A stretch of DNA of 15,726 nucleotides from a virus: the IMG/VR virus record IMGVR_UViG_3300045988_107423; one strand, written 5' to 3'. The notes beneath the pieces were generated by a model. That model searched no databases. It saw nothing but the letters and a program-made list of their open reading frames with translations, and was not told the DNA's origin. The position numbers and the translations under genes were made by a program. Shown in pieces: positions 1,690 to 15,726 of the stretch (the stretch's first letter is position 1; each line of letters starts with the position of its first letter).

Positions 1690-2391
1690 TTACCAAACTT
1701 TCATGAATAAATCGCGACAAGCTTCTACAAGTTCTCGATTAATGTTCTGAATTTGTTCGCGATATTCTGCTATTGCTTCGCTTGTTGATTTTCCTCTCAA
1801 TCCTATCTCTTTTGTGTCTCTGTCTCTTTTGCTGTCTTTGTTGTCGTTTCCTGCATGGTTATTGTTTGCCGTTGTTGTAGTGTTATTGATGGTTTCTCCT
1901 CTGCTCATAGCACTTGCATAATCTTGTGTTGCTACGGTAACTTGTGGGTTATCACTATCAATATTTTGGTAATTTTGGTTGTTTTTTACTTCGCTTTGTC
2001 CTGCATCTGTTGAGTTAGTCGTTGTTTTTTCGTTTCCTTTTTCTGCTTCTGTGATTGTTATATTGACATTTGTAAAAGGGTTATCGTTTTGAATTGCTTT
2101 ATACAATTTTGTATAATATGGCGTCAATTCATGCATTTTTGCCATAAAAGCTGTTTTCCACATTCCTAGAGTTTCAAAGCCTATATAATTATTCCAATAC
2201 CTAAGTAAAAAGTATGTTTTAAAAGTATACAGGTCTTTTCTATCCTCTGAGTAAAAAGGAAAATCAAAGTCAAAAAATTTTCCCTGTGTTTTGTCAATGA
2301 TTCTTTGTATGGATAAGTCCATGCTCCATAGTTCTTGGGTCGGGATAAAGCTTTCACAAATATCTTTGATTGTTGTAGTGTATTTACTCAA
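1690..2391 (-). CDS. Lower collar (gp11-like) protein
   Basis: It lies immediately downstream of the portal gene, as in phi29. It carries an FDFDFPFY...YFLLRYWNNYIGFETLGMW segment. The start is uncertain. ATG 2442 lacks an RBS and overlaps the portal gene by 59 nt. TTG 2391 (overlapping the portal stop as ATTGAGTAA, with a GAGG 9 nt upstream), GTG 2400 and ATG 2322 are alternatives. Confidence 0.55.
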   Translation of the reverse strand: MSKYTTTIKDICESFIPTQELWSMDLSIQRIIDKTQGKFFDFDFPFYSEDRKDLYTFKTYFLLRYWNNYIGFETLGMWKTAFMAKMHELTPYYTKLYKAIQNDNPFTNVNITITEAEKGNEKTTTNSTDAGQSEVKNNQNYQNIDSDNPQVTVATQDYASAMSRGETINNTTTTANNNHAGNDNKDSKRDRDTKEIGLRGKSTSEAIAEYREQIQNINRELVEACRDLFMKVW

Positions 2392-3283
2392 TCTCGTCAC
2401 CCTCTTTCCCTTTTTGCATATACTTATCGGGTATATATCCATTAATCATGGTAGGAAGCTCACTGTTAAAGTCAACTGTCACATTTAGTCCCCATAGTTC
2501 ATTGATAGCGTTTGCGCATCTTCTTCTTAATGTCAGTCCTACATTTCTATTAGCTTCAATCTGACCGTTGTTTCCTGCCGTTTCACCTGTAACAAGGCGT
2601 TCGCCTTTTTCTACTGGGTTACTTTCATAACCTAAAGATGTCAATACTTGTGACCATAAATCTCTTAATTCTTGTTCGCATTTATCTACGATATAAGGAG
2701 CGCCCACATCCAGAGCTTTAATATCTTTCAAGTTTAATGAATCGGAAACTTTTAGAACAGGTAAATAATTATCGTACATTTCTCCCAGTATTTCAAAGCT
2801 CATTTTTTCGTTGTCAGAAGAAGAAAGAGCAACAGGCGTACGCTGTGCATACATATTAATATCCTTTGTTTTCCAAGTATTCGCCATTGCATCTGCATAC
2901 ATTAACGCCTTATAGTAATACGGCATAGTCGAATAATTATTCCATAAGATACAACTGTTTTCTTTGCCATATTCTTCGATATATCCGTTTGCAGTATAAG
3001 CTATTCTGTCTTGAGGAATATTATAAATATCTGGTAGACCAGATAATGAAACATTCATAAAAGCATACCCTGCAACATCGTCTTTGATGAATACACCCAA
3101 ACCACGCCAAAATAATGTTTGTTCAATGTACATTGGTAAAACTTCTTTAGGTAGATTATGCCATTGATACCTGTTTACAAATATATCGAAAATATCATAA
3201 AAAAAGATAGATTTTATTGTTTCAAAATCACTGTTTTTCTTTTTATTGACATTTCGTTCAAAAATTCGTAACGGATTTCTCAC
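2384..3283 (-). CDS. Portal / upper collar connector protein (gp10-like, 299 aa)
   Basis: GTG start at 3283 lies 9 nt after GGAGG (3293-3297). Recalled phi29 gp10 blocks align: YQWHNLPKEV (phi29 FEWENLPPTI), AQRTPVAL (AQKTPVLI), DVGAPYIVDK (TDAPYVVDK), KGERLVTGE (KKERMVTDE) and INELWGLNVTVDF (INELYGLNVKVKF). Confidence 0.9.
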   Translation of the reverse strand: MRNPLRIFERNVNKKKNSDFETIKSIFFYDIFDIFVNRYQWHNLPKEVLPMYIEQTLFWRGLGVFIKDDVAGYAFMNVSLSGLPDIYNIPQDRIAYTANGYIEEYGKENSCILWNNYSTMPYYYKALMYADAMANTWKTKDINMYAQRTPVALSSSDNEKMSFEILGEMYDNYLPVLKVSDSLNLKDIKALDVGAPYIVDKCEQELRDLWSQVLTSLGYESNPVEKGERLVTGETAGNNGQIEANRNVGLTLRRRCANAINELWGLNVTVDFNSELPTMINGYIPDKYMQKGKEGDEIE

Positions 3284-3298
3284 TTATATACACCTCCT

Positions 3299-7890: not shown

Positions 7891-7910
7891 AATGTTTCAC
7901 GTGAAACATT
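7891..7910. promoter_or_regulatory. parS: Perfect parS-consensus palindrome, copy A (AATGTTTCACGTGAAACATT)
   Basis: The inner 16 bp, TGTTTCACGTGAAACA (7893-7908), match TGTTNCACGTGAAACA exactly. The palindrome extends to 24 bp (7889-7912). It lies 2 nt upstream of the tail-lysin RBS on the minus strand. Confidence 0.75.
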
Positions 7911-7911
7911 T

Positions 7912-7927
7912 TGTTCCACGTGAATAA
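7912..7927. promoter_or_regulatory. Degenerate parS-like site A' (TGTTCCACGTGAATAA, 14/16)
   Basis: It abuts copy A, 19 bp centre to centre, between the endolysin stop and the tail-lysin start. Confidence 0.45.
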
Positions 7928-8920: not shown

Positions 8921-9149
8921 GTTTCATGTCCTCCTTACTATCAAAAATATCACAGATACGTTGTAGTGCTAACGTATTATTATTTAGCGCATTTGTAATA
9001 TCTGTCATTTCTTCCTTGTGTTCTTCCGTCATCTTTTCAATTTTTTGGTCATTTTTATCCTCCCTGTACTTGACATACCACATGGACGCACACGCAACCA
9101 CGGTCGGAAGTCCTAAACTATTAATTAATGTGATAACTTCATTTGCCAT
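8913..9149 (-). CDS. Holin, BhlA/UviB-like (78 aa, one N-terminal TM helix and a charged coiled C-terminus)
   Basis: ATG 9149 has an AAAGGAGGTG RBS. The TM segment is VITLINSLGLPTVVACASMWYV, followed by KYREDKNDQK... It lies immediately upstream of the endolysin and is translationally coupled to it. Confidence 0.65.
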   Translation of the reverse strand: MANEVITLINSLGLPTVVACASMWYVKYREDKNDQKIEKMTEEHKEEMTDITNALNNNTLALQRICDIFDSKEDMKHE

Positions 9150-9169
9150 GATATCACCTCCTTTTTTCT

Positions 9170-9198
9170 ATCATAACACAAAAGGACTTATTTGTAAA
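9170..9198 (-). promoter_or_regulatory. Candidate sigma-A-type promoter for the holin, endolysin and tail-lysin genes
   Basis: On the minus strand: TTTACA (9193-9198), 17-bp spacer, TGtTATGAT (-10 at 9170-9175). The predicted start is only about 2 nt before the holin SD, which lowers confidence. Confidence 0.4.
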
Positions 9199-9202
9199 TA
9201 AA

Positions 9203-9222
9203 AATGTTTCACGTGAAACATT
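9203..9222. promoter_or_regulatory. parS: Perfect parS-consensus palindrome, copy B
   Basis: AATGTTTCACGTGAAACATT, with the 16-bp core at 9205-9220. It ends 4 nt upstream of the TTTACA -35 at 9193-9198. Confidence 0.75.
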
Positions 9223-9236
9223 GTCCACGTGAAACA
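9221..9236. promoter_or_regulatory. Degenerate parS-like site B' (TTGTCCACGTGAAACA, 14/16)
   Basis: It overlaps the end of copy B, 16 bp centre to centre. One arm, GTGAAACATTTT, is perfect. Confidence 0.45.
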
Positions 9237-9242
9237 TTTTGT

Positions 9243-9352
9243 GTACGTAACAAAATAATCGAATCAAAGGGAACGCAAAACCAAAAATTGATATCAGACT
9301 GCTTGTCTATGTGCGTGTATATCAATTACAATGTTCGTATTATTTTGGGTAC
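9243..9352 (-). ncRNA. Candidate packaging RNA (pRNA-like) or other structured small RNA; the transcript may extend to about 9197
   Basis: There is no ORF. A strong promoter (9359-9387) predicts +1 at about G9352. The 5' GUAC..AAAAUAAU.CG (9352-9336) pairs with CG.AUUAUUUU..GUAC (9261-9243). A perfect 9-bp helix pairs 9319-9327 with 9286-9294. A distal 5-bp helix pairs 9305-9309 with 9295-9299 (one G-U pair). A 9-nt bulge ACACGCACA occupies 9310-9318. Its ACGCA (9312-9316) is complementary to UGCGU (9273-9277). Confidence 0.4.
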
Positions 9353-9358
9353 GATATT

Positions 9359-9387
9359 ATGATATCATATATTATTTAAAATGTCAA
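9359..9387 (-). promoter_or_regulatory. Strong sigma-A-type promoter facing the non-coding gap
   Basis: On the minus strand: TTGACA (9382-9387), 17-bp spacer, TGaTATCAT (-10 at 9359-9364). This is the closest match to consensus in the window. The -35 overlaps the last 2 bp of parS copy C. Confidence 0.65.
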
Positions 9388-9405
9388 TGTTTCACGTGAA
9401 ACATT
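9386..9405. promoter_or_regulatory. parS: Perfect parS-consensus palindrome, copy C
   Basis: AATGTTTCACGTGAAACATT, with the 16-bp core at 9388-9403. It overlaps the ATPase stop codon (9404-9406) on one side and the TTGACA -35 on the other. Confidence 0.75.
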
Positions 9406-10450
9406 AAAAAGATATGACATCAAATATCATGTTCTTACATTCCAAATTTTCAAACAAAAGTAAACCTCTGTTAAAGTATTCCCGTAACATCGTAACGATA
9501 TAATGGGTCGAGTTGACACGAATAGCAGTATTGTCTATAACATCGGTTTTTGTAAAACATATTCGTGTAGGCAAAATATCATCTGCACCTGTTGACACGT
9601 ATAGACACACATCGTATTTTCTTACATTATATAGATTATCATTGTACTTAATTGTACAAATATAACGTGACTGCCCACTTGGTTTACCAATCAGACATTC
9701 ATTGTCATTTAGATATTTATTCTCGCTCGCATACTCATTATAGTCAGCACCCCGAAAAGCTCTTGCAATAGCGCTTTCCTTATACGCTGTTGAAGCGCTT
9801 TCATTATAAGTTCGCTCAAATACCCAACCGTCTCCTCGTAAAAATTTGGTATCTCTCTTTAACATTTTATTGATACCAAACACGCTATAGTAAGGGTTTA
9901 ACAAAGAGACTGTATTCGATGCCATATATAGCATAACTCTCCTATGCTGTTTACCATGTCCCGAACTGATAGTTGTAAGCAACGACAGTAATTTATTTAC
10001 CTCGTTTGGTAAATATATATTATCTTCGTCTTGATATTCATCAAAAAATACAGAACGGATATTGACGAATAACCCACGCATTTTTTTATACTTTCTTGCG
10101 ACAGATAACGATAGGCAATATCCACACGGCTCTTCATTTAGAAATAATTGAACAAGTGAGCCGTTCATTAAACTCTTTTCAGTCATGACATACCCGTCAA
10201 ATTTTTCAGATATATCGCCAAAATATGTATCGGCACAATTCTTCATATCAACTACATTTCTATATAAATAGATAAATTGGTTTTCTGGTCTGTATTTATC
10301 CTTTAAAAAGTCAGATACTTGTCTACACTTGATAGAATAACTTTTCCCTGCCGTTCTATTGCCATCAACTATATAAATATCGGGGATATTCCCGTTTTTA
10401 TCCTTTAAAGTTAGTAATCTATCACAATGATAATAGCCATCATTTTTCAT
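9404..10450 (-). CDS. DNA encapsidation (packaging) ATPase, gp16-like (348 aa)
   Basis: ATG 10450 has an AGGGGGGTG RBS. Walker A is GNRTAGKSY and Walker B is VFFDEY. NQFIYLYRN, YLPNEVNKLLSLLTTI and ASNTVSLLNPYY parallel the recalled phi29 gp16 EQFIYVRRY, YIPNEVSALLNLMDTV and LSNAVSVVNPYF. Confidence 0.9.
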   Translation of the reverse strand: MKNDGYYHCDRLLTLKDKNGNIPDIYIVDGNRTAGKSYSIKCRQVSDFLKDKYRPENQFIYLYRNVVDMKNCADTYFGDISEKFDGYVMTEKSLMNGSLVQLFLNEEPCGYCLSLSVARKYKKMRGLFVNIRSVFFDEYQDEDNIYLPNEVNKLLSLLTTISSGHGKQHRRVMLYMASNTVSLLNPYYSVFGINKMLKRDTKFLRGDGWVFERTYNESASTAYKESAIARAFRGADYNEYASENKYLNDNECLIGKPSGQSRYICTIKYNDNLYNVRKYDVCLYVSTGADDILPTRICFTKTDVIDNTAIRVNSTHYIVTMLREYFNRGLLLFENLECKNMIFDVISF

Positions 10451-10464
10451 TTTAACACCCCCCT

Positions 10465-10484
10465 AATGTTTCACGTGAAACATT
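10465..10484. promoter_or_regulatory. parS: Perfect parS-consensus palindrome, copy D
   Basis: AATGTTTCACGTGAAACATT, with the 16-bp core at 10467-10482. It lies between the terminator (10491-10522) and the ATPase RBS (10455-10463). Confidence 0.75.
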
Positions 10485-10564: not shown

Positions 10565-10915
10565 TTATAAATTTGACACATCCAAGGTACAATTTATATA
10601 ATCGCGCCCTGCTTTTGTCTTTCCGCTAATTTTAATAATAGAAAATTTTTCACCGTCCATCACGCTTTCAATGTCTTTCAAAGACTGCCTAAATGTTGCA
10701 GACTGTCCAGAATATACTTTCTTATCGGGTGTGATAATGCTCACAATCTCCTGTATATCTCCATTATCTTTAATATCATTAAAGATAATATAACCGTCTA
10801 CAGGAATAGACTCGCCATCTTCAATATTTTTTAATGGTTCAATGTCGGGTGCTGTGGTCATAAGATATTTTTCCACCTTTGTGAACTCTCTACTCATTTC
10901 CTTAATTTCTACCAT
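10565..10915 (-). CDS. Putative ssDNA-binding protein, phi29 p5-like (116 aa)
   Basis: ATG 10915 has an AGGAGGAA RBS. LKNIEDGESI...EIVSIITPDKKVYSGQSATFRQSLKDI...GKTKAGRDYINCTL has the same residue spacing as the recalled phi29 p5 (KNLPDGTII...ETVTTIFAADGSLYSAISKTVAEAASDL...GTSSKGNVFFSLQL). Size and position next to a p6-like gene also fit. Confidence 0.5.
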   Translation of the reverse strand: MVEIKEMSREFTKVEKYLMTTAPDIEPLKNIEDGESIPVDGYIIFNDIKDNGDIQEIVSIITPDKKVYSGQSATFRQSLKDIESVMDGEKFSIIKISGKTKAGRDYINCTLDVSNL

Positions 10916-11344: not shown

Positions 11345-13234
11345 TTATATCATAATTTTTTTATCTTTTTGTTTGTGTATATTGAAATCTTTATTTCTTA
11401 ATACAATACCACCTTTTACTCGTTCCGCTTTTAAGTTACATGATTTCATCTCAAGTCCCTGTGAAAGTTCTGATATGTCTCTACCCTCTTCGACAAATTT
11501 TCTTTTAGCTTGACTACTCATGCCACATGCTTTTATATCTAGATAGGGTTTCTTAACGGGTTCTCTATCTTTTTCAATAATATGCTCAGCATACGTTTTT
11601 TGCCTTTCATAATAGGCAAAATCAAAAGTCGCCTCGCAACCCCAACAACAAAAATCTGTAGGATGTTCAACTACCATTTTCGCATCTTCCAATCCTAATA
11701 AATGAATAGAATCAGTGTCAGCATAACAAAATCTATCATAATTTGCTATAGCGTGGCGTATTGTAAAGTTCATAGCATATGAAGTAATAGCACTACCAAT
11801 AGGGATATACCCTACTTTCTTTTCATGCTCCTCATGTAAGATAAAACTGATAATACCGTCCTTACTAAGATATGGCTCTTTATATGAGGAGTTATCCGAC
11901 ATAGCAAATTTACCGTAAAGATTATTTAAAAAGAGTTTCGCTTTTTGTCTTTTAAAACCTTTTGAAGTTCTTTTTTCTTCACCATACTTATCTATGTATT
12001 CATCAAAAAAACCTGTACTTGCATAAAACCACACATAATCATATACAGCTAAATCATATATTTCATACGTTTCATTAAATAATTCCCAATCAGTACAAGT
12101 CATGGTTAGCGTAACATTAGTATCATGCATTTGACCGTCAATATCACGATAATATCTATAGTATTCACCTTTATATCTAACATCAGATGTATATAAATTT
12201 TCGTTTGCTTTATACAAGGCACTATGTCTAATGTGAACCCAAGGAAAAAATCCTGCTTTTAATCGAAAACGGCAATTGAATCGTATAAAAAAGTATTTAT
12301 TAGTAGAACTAATAAGTTCTTCTGGCGGTGTACCTCTGTGATATTCACCGTGACCGAATGGATATATATTTCCAGAAACACTATGCATCATAGATGGATA
12401 TAGAGAATTTACATCATATACCAACCCTGCACCAACGGGCATATGCGCGTACCTCGGATTGACATAGCACCACCCTCCGTGATAGGAATTATGAATATAA
12501 TCCCACTGATTCCATGTTCCTGTAATAGATTTATCGAGATAATCATCTCGAATATCAGGAAATAACTTCTCATATTGTTTACCGTCATAAAATCCTTTAA
12601 ATTCTGATAAACAACATGAACCAATAGTCAATTTATCGTGTTTTTCATTAAACATCATTTCAAGAGCCTCTTTTAACACTAACACATCATTTTCAATATA
12701 CTTTTTCTCATTATCTGATATATCACAATAGGCATATCTTTCACCCTCATATTTCATCTCTAATTTTTGATGTTTTGTTTTAAAAGATTCTCCTATATCT
12801 TTCAATGATGAGGGCATAAGCTTCAAAGAGTTCCGAATCTCCAAAAAAGTCTTATTCCATTTTAATTTTAACCAATACCACGCTCCCATATCAGAGATGC
12901 AAGTCTGAAACTCTTTTGACCTCATTTCTTTATCTTTACAGTGAACCCATTGCCAACCCTCTTTTAATAGAAAGTCAACTATAAAAGAACCGTCAAAAGC
13001 TAGGTTATGAAAGTACAATATATTATTTCCTTTCATTGTTAGAAATCTATTTAAAAAATCTCTTATAGAGTGTGTTATTGTTACGGTTTCGGATTCATCA
13101 TATAAAGCCACGTCAGCACCCGACCAGACCTCTGCACTGTCTTGTTTTTTACCTTTTTCCCGTTCTACCTTTTCACCCCAAACAGTTGTTTCAAAATCGC
13201 ACGCCCAAAAAGTAATATTCTTTTCACGTGGCAT
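11345..13234 (-). CDS. Protein-primed family B DNA polymerase (629 aa)
   Basis: The likely start is ATG 13234 (MPREKNITFWACDFETT; phi29 has MPRKMYSCDFETT) after AAGGTGGTGA. The ORF track's GTG at 13246 falls within that RBS. Motifs: ExoI DFETT, ExoII HNLAFDGSFIV, ExoIII YIENDVLVL, motif A DVNSLYPSMM, motif B KLFLNNLYGKF, motif C YADTDSIH, and QKTY...IKACGMS near the C-terminus. Confidence 0.95.
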   Translation of the reverse strand: MPREKNITFWACDFETTVWGEKVEREKGKKQDSAEVWSGADVALYDESETVTITHSIRDFLNRFLTMKGNNILYFHNLAFDGSFIVDFLLKEGWQWVHCKDKEMRSKEFQTCISDMGAWYWLKLKWNKTFLEIRNSLKLMPSSLKDIGESFKTKHQKLEMKYEGERYAYCDISDNEKKYIENDVLVLKEALEMMFNEKHDKLTIGSCCLSEFKGFYDGKQYEKLFPDIRDDYLDKSITGTWNQWDYIHNSYHGGWCYVNPRYAHMPVGAGLVYDVNSLYPSMMHSVSGNIYPFGHGEYHRGTPPEELISSTNKYFFIRFNCRFRLKAGFFPWVHIRHSALYKANENLYTSDVRYKGEYYRYYRDIDGQMHDTNVTLTMTCTDWELFNETYEIYDLAVYDYVWFYASTGFFDEYIDKYGEEKRTSKGFKRQKAKLFLNNLYGKFAMSDNSSYKEPYLSKDGIISFILHEEHEKKVGYIPIGSAITSYAMNFTIRHAIANYDRFCYADTDSIHLLGLEDAKMVVEHPTDFCCWGCEATFDFAYYERQKTYAEHIIEKDREPVKKPYLDIKACGMSSQAKRKFVEEGRDISELSQGLEMKSCNLKAERVKGGIVLRNKDFNIHKQKDKKIMI

Positions 13235-13251
13235 TACACTCACCACCTTTT

Positions 13252-14167: not shown

Positions 14168-14632
14168 TTATAAAATATTAAATACTTTCCATGTGAAATC
14201 TGAAAAGTGCTCTGCTATGAATGATACAGAAGATAAGAAAAGATATAGTAAAAATGTTGCCATAATTATAACTGATAAGATTCCCAAAAAAGATGATATT
14301 TTTTCTAATTTGGTAAATGACTCTTTTTCTTCTGTAGTTGTATGCCTTGCTATCCATTCTGTAGGAGTTTCATGCAATGTTTCACGTGAAACATTATCTG
14401 AATCGATTTTATGATTTTGAAATGTCTCTATATAGTCTTTATTTCCCTTAGTATCAATGGTATAGGCTTCTCCATCAAAACCCACATAAATGTTTTTATT
14501 AGTATACAAATTTTCTACCCAGTAGGGTTCGTCTACAAATAAGGCTATGTAGTTGTTTAGTGAGTTTTCAGTGTGAAAGTCGTGTATTTCTACACCAAAA
14601 TCTGTGATATTATGTAATCTGTATTTAATCAT
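14168..14632 (-). CDS. Early membrane protein, C-terminally anchored (154 aa)
   Basis: ATG 14632 overlaps the upstream stop (ATGATTAA). There is a single hydrophobic helix near the C-terminus (ISSFLGILSVIIMATFLLYLFLSSVSFIA). The gene contains parS copy E. Function is unknown; a role in membrane localisation of replication, like phi29 p1 or p16.7, is speculation. Confidence 0.5.
   Translation of the reverse strand: MIKYRLHNITDFGVEIHDFHTENSLNNYIALFVDEPYWVENLYTNKNIYVGFDGEAYTIDTKGNKDYIETFQNHKIDSDNVSRETLHETPTEWIARHTTTEEKESFTKLEKISSFLGILSVIIMATFLLYLFLSSVSFIAEHFSDFTWKVFNIL
14376..14395. promoter_or_regulatory. parS: Perfect parS-consensus palindrome, copy E (intragenic)
   Basis: AATGTTTCACGTGAAACATT, with the 16-bp core at 14378-14393. 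It lies inside the membrane-protein CDS and encodes N-V-S-R-E-T-L. Confidence 0.7.
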
Positions 14633-15633: not shown

Positions 15634-15662
15634 ATAATACCACACGCCTGTTCGTTTGTCAA
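15634..15662 (-). promoter_or_regulatory. Right-end early promoter (sigma-A type)
   Basis: On the minus strand: TTGACA (15657-15662), 17-bp spacer, TGgTATTAT (-10 at 15634-15639, part of TATTATAAT). It lies just inside the right ITR and upstream of the first gene. Confidence 0.65.
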
Positions 15663-15676
15663 GTATTTTTTCGTGC

Positions 15677-15726
15677 TTTTTTAATCAAAAGGGGGTCGTG
15701 GTCTCATTGGGAATAACGAAAGCCCT
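15677..15726. repeat. Right inverted terminal repeat (ITR)
   Basis: Exact reverse complement of 1-50. Confidence 0.95.

Follow-up and report, generated by a model that had tools for sequence, protein, structure and literature searches.

A covarying pRNA-like RNA beside the packaging ATPase gene of phi29-like gut phages: a candidate counterpart of the phi29 prohead RNA

The window analyzed here is the whole 15,726-bp stretch of IMG/VR virus record IMGVR_UViG_3300045988_107423, in which the minus strand carries every credible gene. The present comparisons indicate that the gap directly 3′ of its packaging ATPase gene holds, on the same strand as the other genes, an RNA gene whose core is, with a probability that we put at about 0.78, a highly divergent functional counterpart of the prohead (packaging) RNA, pRNA, of phage phi29. 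To our knowledge, pRNA is the only RNA known among the components of viral DNA-packaging motors. That a structured RNA under selection exists is nearly certain from the sequence comparisons, and a pRNA-like architecture with co-evolving loops is very likely; a function in packaging we infer, strongly, from this architecture, the gene linkage, and the presence of both protein partners. An earlier interpretation of the window, the sequence-only reading, had proposed such a pRNA equivalent, and this is supported by covarying helices and a covarying bulge/loop complementarity, by the pRNA order of elements, and by homologues of gp10 and gp16.

The sequence features on which the sequence-only reading was built all lie where it had placed them. 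The elements of the RNA, from its 5′ to its 3′ end and in window coordinates, are the following:

9243–9352, minus strand: core of the pRNA-like RNA, 110 nt, a three-way-junction domain with paired 5′ and 3′ ends
9332–9352, minus strand: 5′ strand of the A helix, GUAC, C, CAAAAUAAU, A, CGAACA, beginning at the predicted +1
9319–9327, minus strand: 5′ strand of the C helix, AAUUGAUAU, with its partner at 9286–9294
9310–9318, minus strand: 9-nt bulge in the 5′ strand, corresponding to the CE bulge of phi29, ACACGCACA, with the proposed kissing bases ACGCA at 9316–9312
9295–9309, minus strand: E hairpin, UAGAC-AAGCA-GUCUG
9286–9294, minus strand: 3′ strand of the C helix, AUAUCAAUU, followed by the UUU junction at 9285–9283
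9269–9282, minus strand: D hairpin, GG (9282–9281), loop UUUUGCGUU, CCC (9271–9269), with the proposed kissing bases UGCGU at 9277–9273
9243–9266, minus strand: 3′ strand of the A helix, UGAUUCG, AUUAUUUUG, internal loop UUAC (9250–9247), GUAC

RNAfold applied to 9197–9352 (minus strand) yields the fold claimed earlier, namely the GUAC/GUAC closing helix, AAUUGAUAU paired with AUAUCAAUU, the bulge ACACGCACA, and UAGAC/GUCUG, and it also shows the CAAAAUAAU and CGAACA helices and a 17-bp 3′ hairpin. The two pentamers ACGCA and UGCGU are present and mutually complementary, and the D helix, whose weakness had already been pointed out, consists of just GG/CC and yet is invariant. The 156-nt stretch has a folding energy of −40.8 kcal/mol (z = −4.4), a value that owes much to the 3′ palindromic hairpin, while the core alone, taken as 113 nt, has −19.8 kcal/mol. 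From the window sequence alone, the fold and the complementarity are not beyond chance.

In the close relatives, called clade A here (79 IMG/VR contigs retrieved by their ATPase protein, with 88–96% ATPase identity), the RNA is present in 79 of 79 cases. Measured over 76 loci, identity to the window amounts to 93.1% for the RNA body, as compared to 74.3% for the ATPase gene as a whole and 57.6% for its third codon positions; the high conservation starts exactly at the predicted +1. Covariation was evaluated in a structure-blind MAFFT alignment of 68 distinct RNAs, where 99.2% of the cells are paired and compensatory changes occur at 7 pairs in 37 cells, as compared to 2.4 pairs and 7.9 cells in shuffles and 0–3 pairs with slid partners. 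In the A helix, U-A is replaced by C-G at pair 2/112 in 9 sequences and G-C by A-U at pair 17/95 in 18, and the double changes convert GUAC/GUAC to GCAC/GUGC and CGAACA/UGAUUCG to CAAGCA/UGCAUUG. The E hairpin has compensatory changes at three pairs (e.g., UAGAC/GUCUG to UGAAC/GUUCG). The pairs of the C helix are nearly invariant inside the clade, with no compensatory change; the bulge CGCAC is invariant in 78 sequences, and the D-loop UUGCG is likewise invariant in the clade.

Further ATPase searches gave clades that are about 50–60% identical in this protein to the window or to one another. In nearly all of them, three elements succeed each other after the ATPase stop, namely a promoter of the TTGACA or extended −10 type with its predicted +1 at the start of a helix, an RNA of ~110 nt, and a clade-specific terminator. 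A first covariance model, built from clade A only, gives full-length matches (1–110) directly after the ATPase stop in the other clades, locus L109 excepted. The scores are 30–43 bits for clade B, L111, L165, and L109 and 17–25 bits for L105, L107, L108, L110, and L169; the match in L175 falls below these (13.8 bits, E about 1), and the best off-target scores are ≤15 bits. In L109 (IMGVR_UViG_3300045988_141230), the RNA gene is intact at 3185–3295, ~650 nt downstream of the ATPase gene and after the next gene. A palindrome and a ribosome-binding site directly follow the ATPase stop of this locus.

The cross-clade alignment of 19 sequences has 90.5% of its cells paired (60.9% when shuffled, about 40% when slid) and compensatory change at 33 of the 39 pairs. 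The nested pairs of this alignment lean to the structure of the model, which is why the MAFFT-based result for clade A matters. For helices A, C, and E, covariation is seen inside clades as well as from clade to clade. Across clades, 9 of the 9 pairs of the C helix covary, and 98.8% of the cells are paired with the sequence totally turned over, while the GG and CCC of the D helix are invariant throughout. The ratios of G-U to A-C are 95:8 and 44:8, and such an excess indicates that the pairing belongs to RNA of the transcribed strand of the gene. A U(U/C/A)AC internal loop on the 3′ strand of the A helix recurs in clades A, B, and C and in the CS229P3 group described below, and the E-loop motif GCAAGUAGC is common to clades A and B. 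The search for covariation in related genomes, which the sequence-only reading had set beforehand as a test of itself, thus revealed structure-preserving changes both within and between clades.

The bulge and D-loop sequences differ among at least ten lineages and yet remain complementary, with the complementary bulge bases situated in the 3′ half of the bulge in each lineage. The proposed kissing pairs are:

clade A: ACGCA / UGCGU
clade B: GCGUUA / UAACGC
L105: GAAUCAA / UUGAUUC
L107 and L108: CCCA / UGGG (or ACCC / GGGU)
L110: UCCA / UGGA
L111: GGAUA / UAUCC
L165: GAUA / UAUC
clade D: AGACAA / UUGUCU
L175: UGCAA / UUGCA
L109: GUACA / UGUAC
CS229P3: CUGUA / UACAG

In a permutation test on nine lineages (L109 was found later and is not among them), the cognate complementarities sum to 46, as compared to sums that average 31.2 and never exceed 44 upon re-pairing in 100,000 permutations. 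Shuffle tests made per lineage combine to a Fisher p of 2e-4. The kissing bases share D-loop columns across clades, with a one-column register shift in some lineages, and in the model-derived alignment 5 of the 5 pseudoknot columns covary with changes on both sides. Because the covariance model leaves these columns unpaired, their covariation owes nothing to the fitting of the alignment, and the complementarity first noticed in the window is in this way borne out between lineages.

The CS229P3-like group comprises 80 loci with 66–97% ATPase identity to Clostridium phage CS229P3, the ATPase of which is 37.5% identical to that of the window. In this group, the ATPase stop codon is immediately followed by an RNA of about 100–115 nt, for which no clear separate promoter was seen. 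Several members reach the same topology by minimum-free-energy (MFE) folding. When 56 distinct RNAs are aligned with plain MAFFT, 100% of the sequences have Watson–Crick pairs at each of the three central bulge/loop positions, with 2–3 pair types per position (AU 40, UA 10, CG 6; GC 53, AU 3; CG 45, UA 8, GC 3). RNAalifold on the same alignment finds the E and D hairpins only, as the variable helices are misaligned. In CS229P3 itself (L161, OP172774.1, 1492–2700), the ATPase gene and the RNA (2553–2649) form a lone plus-strand module amid minus-strand genes, ended by a bidirectional terminator beyond which the genes are convergent, as is likewise the case in the 80-locus group. This arrangement links the RNA to the ATPase gene rather than to downstream genes. 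Few loci of the group pass a multi-clade covariance model, R2. It also gives matches of 16–25 bits on the wrong strand of L198–L200 (about 2024–2138, minus strand), which overlap the terminator and the end of the convergent gene and are probably spurious. Scores of ~25 bits are for this reason indecisive, and R2 was not relied on in the group, which was judged instead by MFE folds and by column counts on the MAFFT alignment.

The gap had been described as devoid of a credible open reading frame (ORF), and this is borne out by the ORF listing and by the relatives. Only two minus-strand ORFs of at least 20 aa are found, both with a TTG start and of 37–38 aa, and 1–3-nt indels in the relatives fall within them; a coding explanation was rejected on these grounds. 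A blastn search of the gap and its flanks against GenBank phages returned one short irrelevant match only. The signals around the RNA core are:

9359–9387, minus strand: sigma-70-type promoter of the RNA gene, TTGACA (9387–9382), 17-nt spacer, TG-A-TATCAT (9367–9359)
9194–9241, minus strand: 3′ hairpin and UUUUUAUUU, made of one degenerate and one perfect palindrome copy, with a 17-bp stem and a U-run
9170–9198, minus strand: second promoter-like site, TTTACA, 17 nt, TG-T-TATGAT, 10/12 plus TG, kept in the clade-A alignment

The RNA-gene promoter scores 11/12 plus TG, has an extended −10, and predicts G9352 as the +1. Its position and consensus match are as the sequence-only reading had them, but its rank as the single strongest promoter does not hold, since it is tied with a second 11/12-plus-TG site at 15662–15634 (minus strand) and beaten by TTGACA-18-TATAAT at 10573–10602 (plus strand), the sole 12/12 sigma-70 match of the genome. 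The latter overlaps the start of the SSB-like gene and is antisense to it, the credible genes all being on the minus strand, and it could give an antisense transcript or be due to chance. The −35 hexamer, the TG, and the −10 core positions (T, A...A, T) do not vary in any of 78 sequences, in contrast to the spacer and discriminator (76.6% identity to the window). In each of clades A–D, the +1 predicted from the promoter coincides with the first base of helix A. The hairpin at 9194–9241 is likely an intrinsic terminator or a 3′ domain, with a predicted transcript of about 155–160 nt, and other clades have different hairpin-plus-U-run terminators in the corresponding place. The site at 9170–9198 precedes the holin gene and parts the RNA gene from the lysis and late genes. 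A second consensus promoter is also found in clade B (e.g., L081, about 2690–2860) between the RNA terminator and the holin gene; its −35 lies in the terminator loop, and it is followed by a conserved hairpin, UUAACGAUUAAGUGAUUGCUUAAUUGUUUAA, and then by an array of palindromes. Overall, the RNA gene of clades A–D appears to be an independent transcription unit with its own promoter and terminator and with predicted start and end points.

The window is bounded by perfect 50-nt inverted terminal repeats at 1–50 and 15677–15726, which indicates a complete linear genome of the protein-primed type. The repeats and the phi29-type protein set together identify it as the complete genome of a small phi29-like, presumably protein-primed podovirus. 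The proteins of most relevance are:

9404–10450, minus strand: packaging ATPase, gp16 homologue, full-length match to PF05894 (E = 1.6e-32), phrog_2150 terminase
2384–3283, minus strand: head-tail connector, gp10 homologue, PF05352 (E = 1.2e-48)
11345–13246: phi29-type DNA polymerase, PolB of the protein-primed type
10565–10915: SSB-like protein

Other phi29-type products encoded in the window are a holin, an endolysin, a scaffold, the major head protein (MCP), and a gp9-type tail knob. Both protein partners of phi29 pRNA, the gp10-type connector and the gp16-type nuclease-less packaging ATPase, therefore have homologues here. The connector, the presumed docking partner of the RNA ring, has a basic N-terminus (MRNPLRIFERNVNKKKN when GTG is taken as the start). 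The ATPase is about 26% identical to that of phi29, and its closest GenBank relatives, with 37–40% identity, are from human-faecal metagenome contigs and from phage CS229P3, which infects C. symbiosum. A 96%-identical copy in one metagenome bin labelled "uncultured Clostridia" is the sole match among reference genomes; Clostridia may be the hosts of these gut phages, the bin match being weak evidence.

The nearest known counterparts of the RNA are phi29 pRNA and the M2/NF, B103, SF5, GA-1, and DLc1-type pRNAs of other Bacillus-type phages. In the RF00044 alignment, the order of elements in phi29 pRNA is A, C, a 9-nt bulge on the 5′ strand, the E hairpin, the 3′ strand of C, UUU, the D hairpin, and A. 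The window RNA matches this order, including the 9-nt bulge, its strand, and the UUU junction. It shares with phi29 pRNA a core of about 110–120 nt with its ends joined by a long A helix, the covarying complementarity of bulge and D loop, a 3′ hairpin domain beyond the core, a strong predicted promoter of its own, and a phi29-like protein-primed podovirus with gp10 and gp16 homologues as its carrier. There are also differences. The gene lies beside the ATPase gene here, whereas that of phi29 is at the left genome end (nt 147–320; PMC11476376), the position at which RF00044 also matches phi29. The D helix is 2–5 bp with a loop of 7–12 nt (2–3 G-C pairs and 9 nt in the window), as compared to 6 bp and 5 nt in phi29, and the kisses are 4–7 nt long as compared to 3–4 nt in Bacillus-type pRNAs (PMC12670572). 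Between A and C, 2–4 nt are unpaired here. The phages come from human gut samples, with hosts that are maybe Clostridia and not Bacillus. In place of the CCA bulge of phi29 helix A, the conserved U(U/C/A)AC loop is found on the 3′ strand, and by analogy it may correspond to the 3-nt helix-A bulge that phi29 uses for ATPase docking.

As far as is detectable, the RNA is a sequence-unrelated pRNA-like RNA outside the curated RF00044 family: the model, which scores phi29 itself at 145 bits, finds nothing in the window at the gathering threshold of 100 bits. Weak Rfam matches to miRNA and Lacto-rpoB families reflect the palindromic hairpin only and were discarded. No model matches in either direction, and the likeness to Bacillus pRNA may reflect homology or convergence. 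The papers that we searched confine pRNA to Bacillus-type phages. A 2024 review regards it as unique to phi29 and its relatives among Bacillus phages (PMC11476376), a 2025 structure-based Infernal survey with phi29, GA1, and DLc1 as seeds recovered Bacillus-type examples only (PMC12670572), and a pRNA is described as not in evidence in the phi29-like Lactococcus phage asccphi28 (PMC7823558). Our text searches of the literature for pRNA-like RNAs outside Bacillus-type phages found nothing.

Part of the surroundings of the RNA gene consists of a repeated palindrome:

9386–9405, no strand assigned: 20-bp perfect palindrome, AATGTTTCACGTGAAACATT, overlapping the stop codon of the ATPase gene and two bases at the start of the −35

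Five perfect copies are present in the window (7891–7910, 9203–9222, 9386–9405, 10465–10484, and 14376–14395), together with degenerate ones at 7912–7927 and 9221–9236; allowing up to 3 mismatches, 8 matches are found in the window vs 0.12 expected. The ATPase, holin, and gp13-like genes have copies just upstream of their ribosome-binding site or promoter, the RNA gene has copies on both sides, and one copy is inside ORF 14168–14632. The core of the palindrome also occurs in phages with only 37–60% ATPase identity. It directly follows the ATPase stop in CS229P3, and in clade B tandem arrays of 2–4 copies about 27 nt apart precede the holin gene. The palindrome may serve a conserved regulator as its operator, or it may act as a hairpin or terminator in RNA. 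When the alignment of the whole gap was folded with RNAalifold, the copies at 9386–9405 and 9203–9222 were paired around the RNA, which we judged to be a repeat artefact.

A number of observations weigh against the assignment as a pRNA counterpart. In the window, the 113-nt core folds unremarkably (z = −1.6, with 13 of 200 shuffles folding as well), and the ACGCA/UGCGU complementarity, although present, is not significant, as its shuffle p of about 0.28 replaces the ~10% chance estimated earlier. In the permutation test, the limits of the bulge and D segments were drawn by eye. The U-rich junction of the sequence-only reading is there in the window as UUU, but it is kept in the window's clade only, the C–D junction being AAC, GGUAU, or nothing elsewhere. 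Single-sequence folds of GC-rich clades (L080, L105, and L111) give other structures with z about 0, which we took as uninformative either way. The scan with the Rfam pRNA covariance model that had been suggested as a check does not recognize the RNA: even at E ≤ 10, RF00044 finds nothing in 9100–9450 and nothing in 16 representative loci. Conversely, R2 has no match in the left-end 700 nt of phi29, where the pRNA gene is located, or of GA-1. The 5′-strand CCA bulge of phi29 helix A is absent. In the remoter phi29-like phages CPS2 and LE1-1, no gap follows the ATPase gene; a gap upstream of this gene in LE1-1 folds into an unrelated hairpin. Finally, the D helix is so short, with a 9-nt loop, that an intramolecular pseudoknot is maybe sterically possible.

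The last point leads to the alternative of a structured RNA in which the bulge and the D loop of the same molecule form a pseudoknot and which is not part of the packaging motor, serving instead in translation control of the ATPase, in stabilization of the mRNA 3′ end, or as a decoy or regulator of a host factor. With the very short GG/CC helix and a loop of 9–12 nt, an intramolecular contact is less excluded than in phi29; moreover, the CS229P3-group RNA abuts the ATPase stop without a clear promoter, like an element of the 3′ untranslated region, and no family model ties the RNA to pRNA. We nevertheless consider this explanation unlikely, because the topology equals that of pRNA element for element, including the bulge's strand and size, because the phage lineage encodes homologues of both pRNA-binding proteins, and because the RNA has its own predicted promoter and terminator in clades A to D and is intact in L109 at a distance of ~650 nt from the ATPase gene.

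A cis-acting leader of the lysis or late operon, i.e., an attenuator or a put-like antiterminator governing read-through into the holin, lysin, and structural genes, would fit the order of promoter, RNA, hairpin with U-run, and holin gene in the window and clade B, and the flanking palindrome copies could bind a regulator. In CS229P3 and the 80-locus group, however, the bidirectional terminator and the convergent genes leave nothing downstream to read into, which argues against a leader or antiterminator. The downstream gene varies by clade (holin, GH25 lysin, or CHAP-like) while the upstream ATPase gene is constant, the RNA of L109 follows a different gene, a second promoter separates the RNA from the holin gene in clades A and B, and the covarying bulge/loop complementarity would be left without a role. 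Such a leader is thus quite improbable. Least plausible of all is that there is no functional RNA, and that the gap is a DNA-level regulatory region of two promoters and operator palindromes with the fold as a by-product of AT-rich sequence. This possibility can draw on the core folding energy within the shuffle range, on the 5-nt complementarity, which alone is not significant, and on the palindromes, which are clearly a repeated DNA or RNA motif. It is strongly disfavored already by the covariation and the strand bias: compensatory double substitutions occur in every helix, the C helix being turned over and still 98.8% paired, and a bias for G-U over A-C on one strand is meaningless for duplex DNA. 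In addition, the conservation is highest between the promoter and the palindromes and not around the regulatory motifs.

Two other groups of natural RNAs are of interest for comparison. The put RNA of phage HK022 consists of two stem-loops. The window's clade resembles put and other antitermination leaders in placing a structured RNA between a strong promoter and a terminator with late genes beyond it. It differs from put by the three-way junction with covarying bulge/loop complementarity, and the RNAs of the CS229P3 group differ from put-type leaders in having no same-strand downstream genes and in their linkage to the upstream ATPase gene. Should the loops pair between molecules, the pRNA-like RNA would be another natural self-assembling closed multimer like ROOL, GOLLD, and OLE, which are often associated with phages or Firmicutes (PMC12286853). 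The latter are several hundred nt long, have no protein scaffold, and are of unknown function, whereas the present RNA is ~110 nt and expected on the portal vertex.

It is worth mentioning one further locus, in Clostridium phage CI130P1 (L280, OP172761.1; C. innocuum), where a 150-nt gap at 1001–1150 lies upstream of the ATPase gene. This gap has a TGCTATAAT promoter, a long closing helix with a U-run behind it, and a CAGG-GUAACU-CCUG hairpin, and in one fold, examined by eye, a bulge ACCA is complementary to the hairpin-loop UGGU. It may represent a further pRNA-like RNA in a remoter group.

In the mechanism that we propose, a discrete small RNA would be made from its own sigma-70 promoter, extending from G9352 to the palindromic hairpin and U-run near 9195. 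By analogy with phi29, the bulge ACGCA of one RNA would pair with the D loop UGCGU of the next, and a ring of RNAs would thereby form at the connector vertex of the prohead. Each RNA would touch the connector and the capsid with its C/E/D end, while its A helix would point outward as a scaffold for the gp16-type ATPase ring, which would pump the protein-primed genome into the head. Phi29-type pRNAs are abundant, discrete transcripts of about 120–174 nt that proheads bind and packaging requires, and mature virions lack them. It is from phi29 that we infer the intermolecular, ring-closing nature of the loop-loop pairing, the binding to proheads, and the requirement for packaging.

If this assignment is correct, hundreds of phage contigs, many of them from human gut samples, would hold a second pRNA family that is unrelated in sequence to the first. 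pRNA is itself a workhorse of RNA nanotechnology, and dozens of natural variants of the three-way junction and kissing loops, with 4–7-bp kisses, would become available. Clostridium phage CS229P3 on C. symbiosum provides a cultured system in which the RNA can be tested. The RNA-dependent motor would be far more widespread than thought, which would bear on why such motors use RNA and whether its use is ancestral. We regard the chances as evenly balanced that RNA-scaffolded motors are not a peculiarity of Bacillus phages but are widespread, and possibly ancestral, among the phi29-like phages of gut Firmicutes. In this wider reading, phi29-like phages described as pRNA-less may hold unrecognized ones, the RNA gene would usually be carried in a two-gene ATPase-pRNA module, and its kisses of 4–7 nt would diversify per lineage and perhaps constitute an assembly-specificity code between co-infecting relatives.

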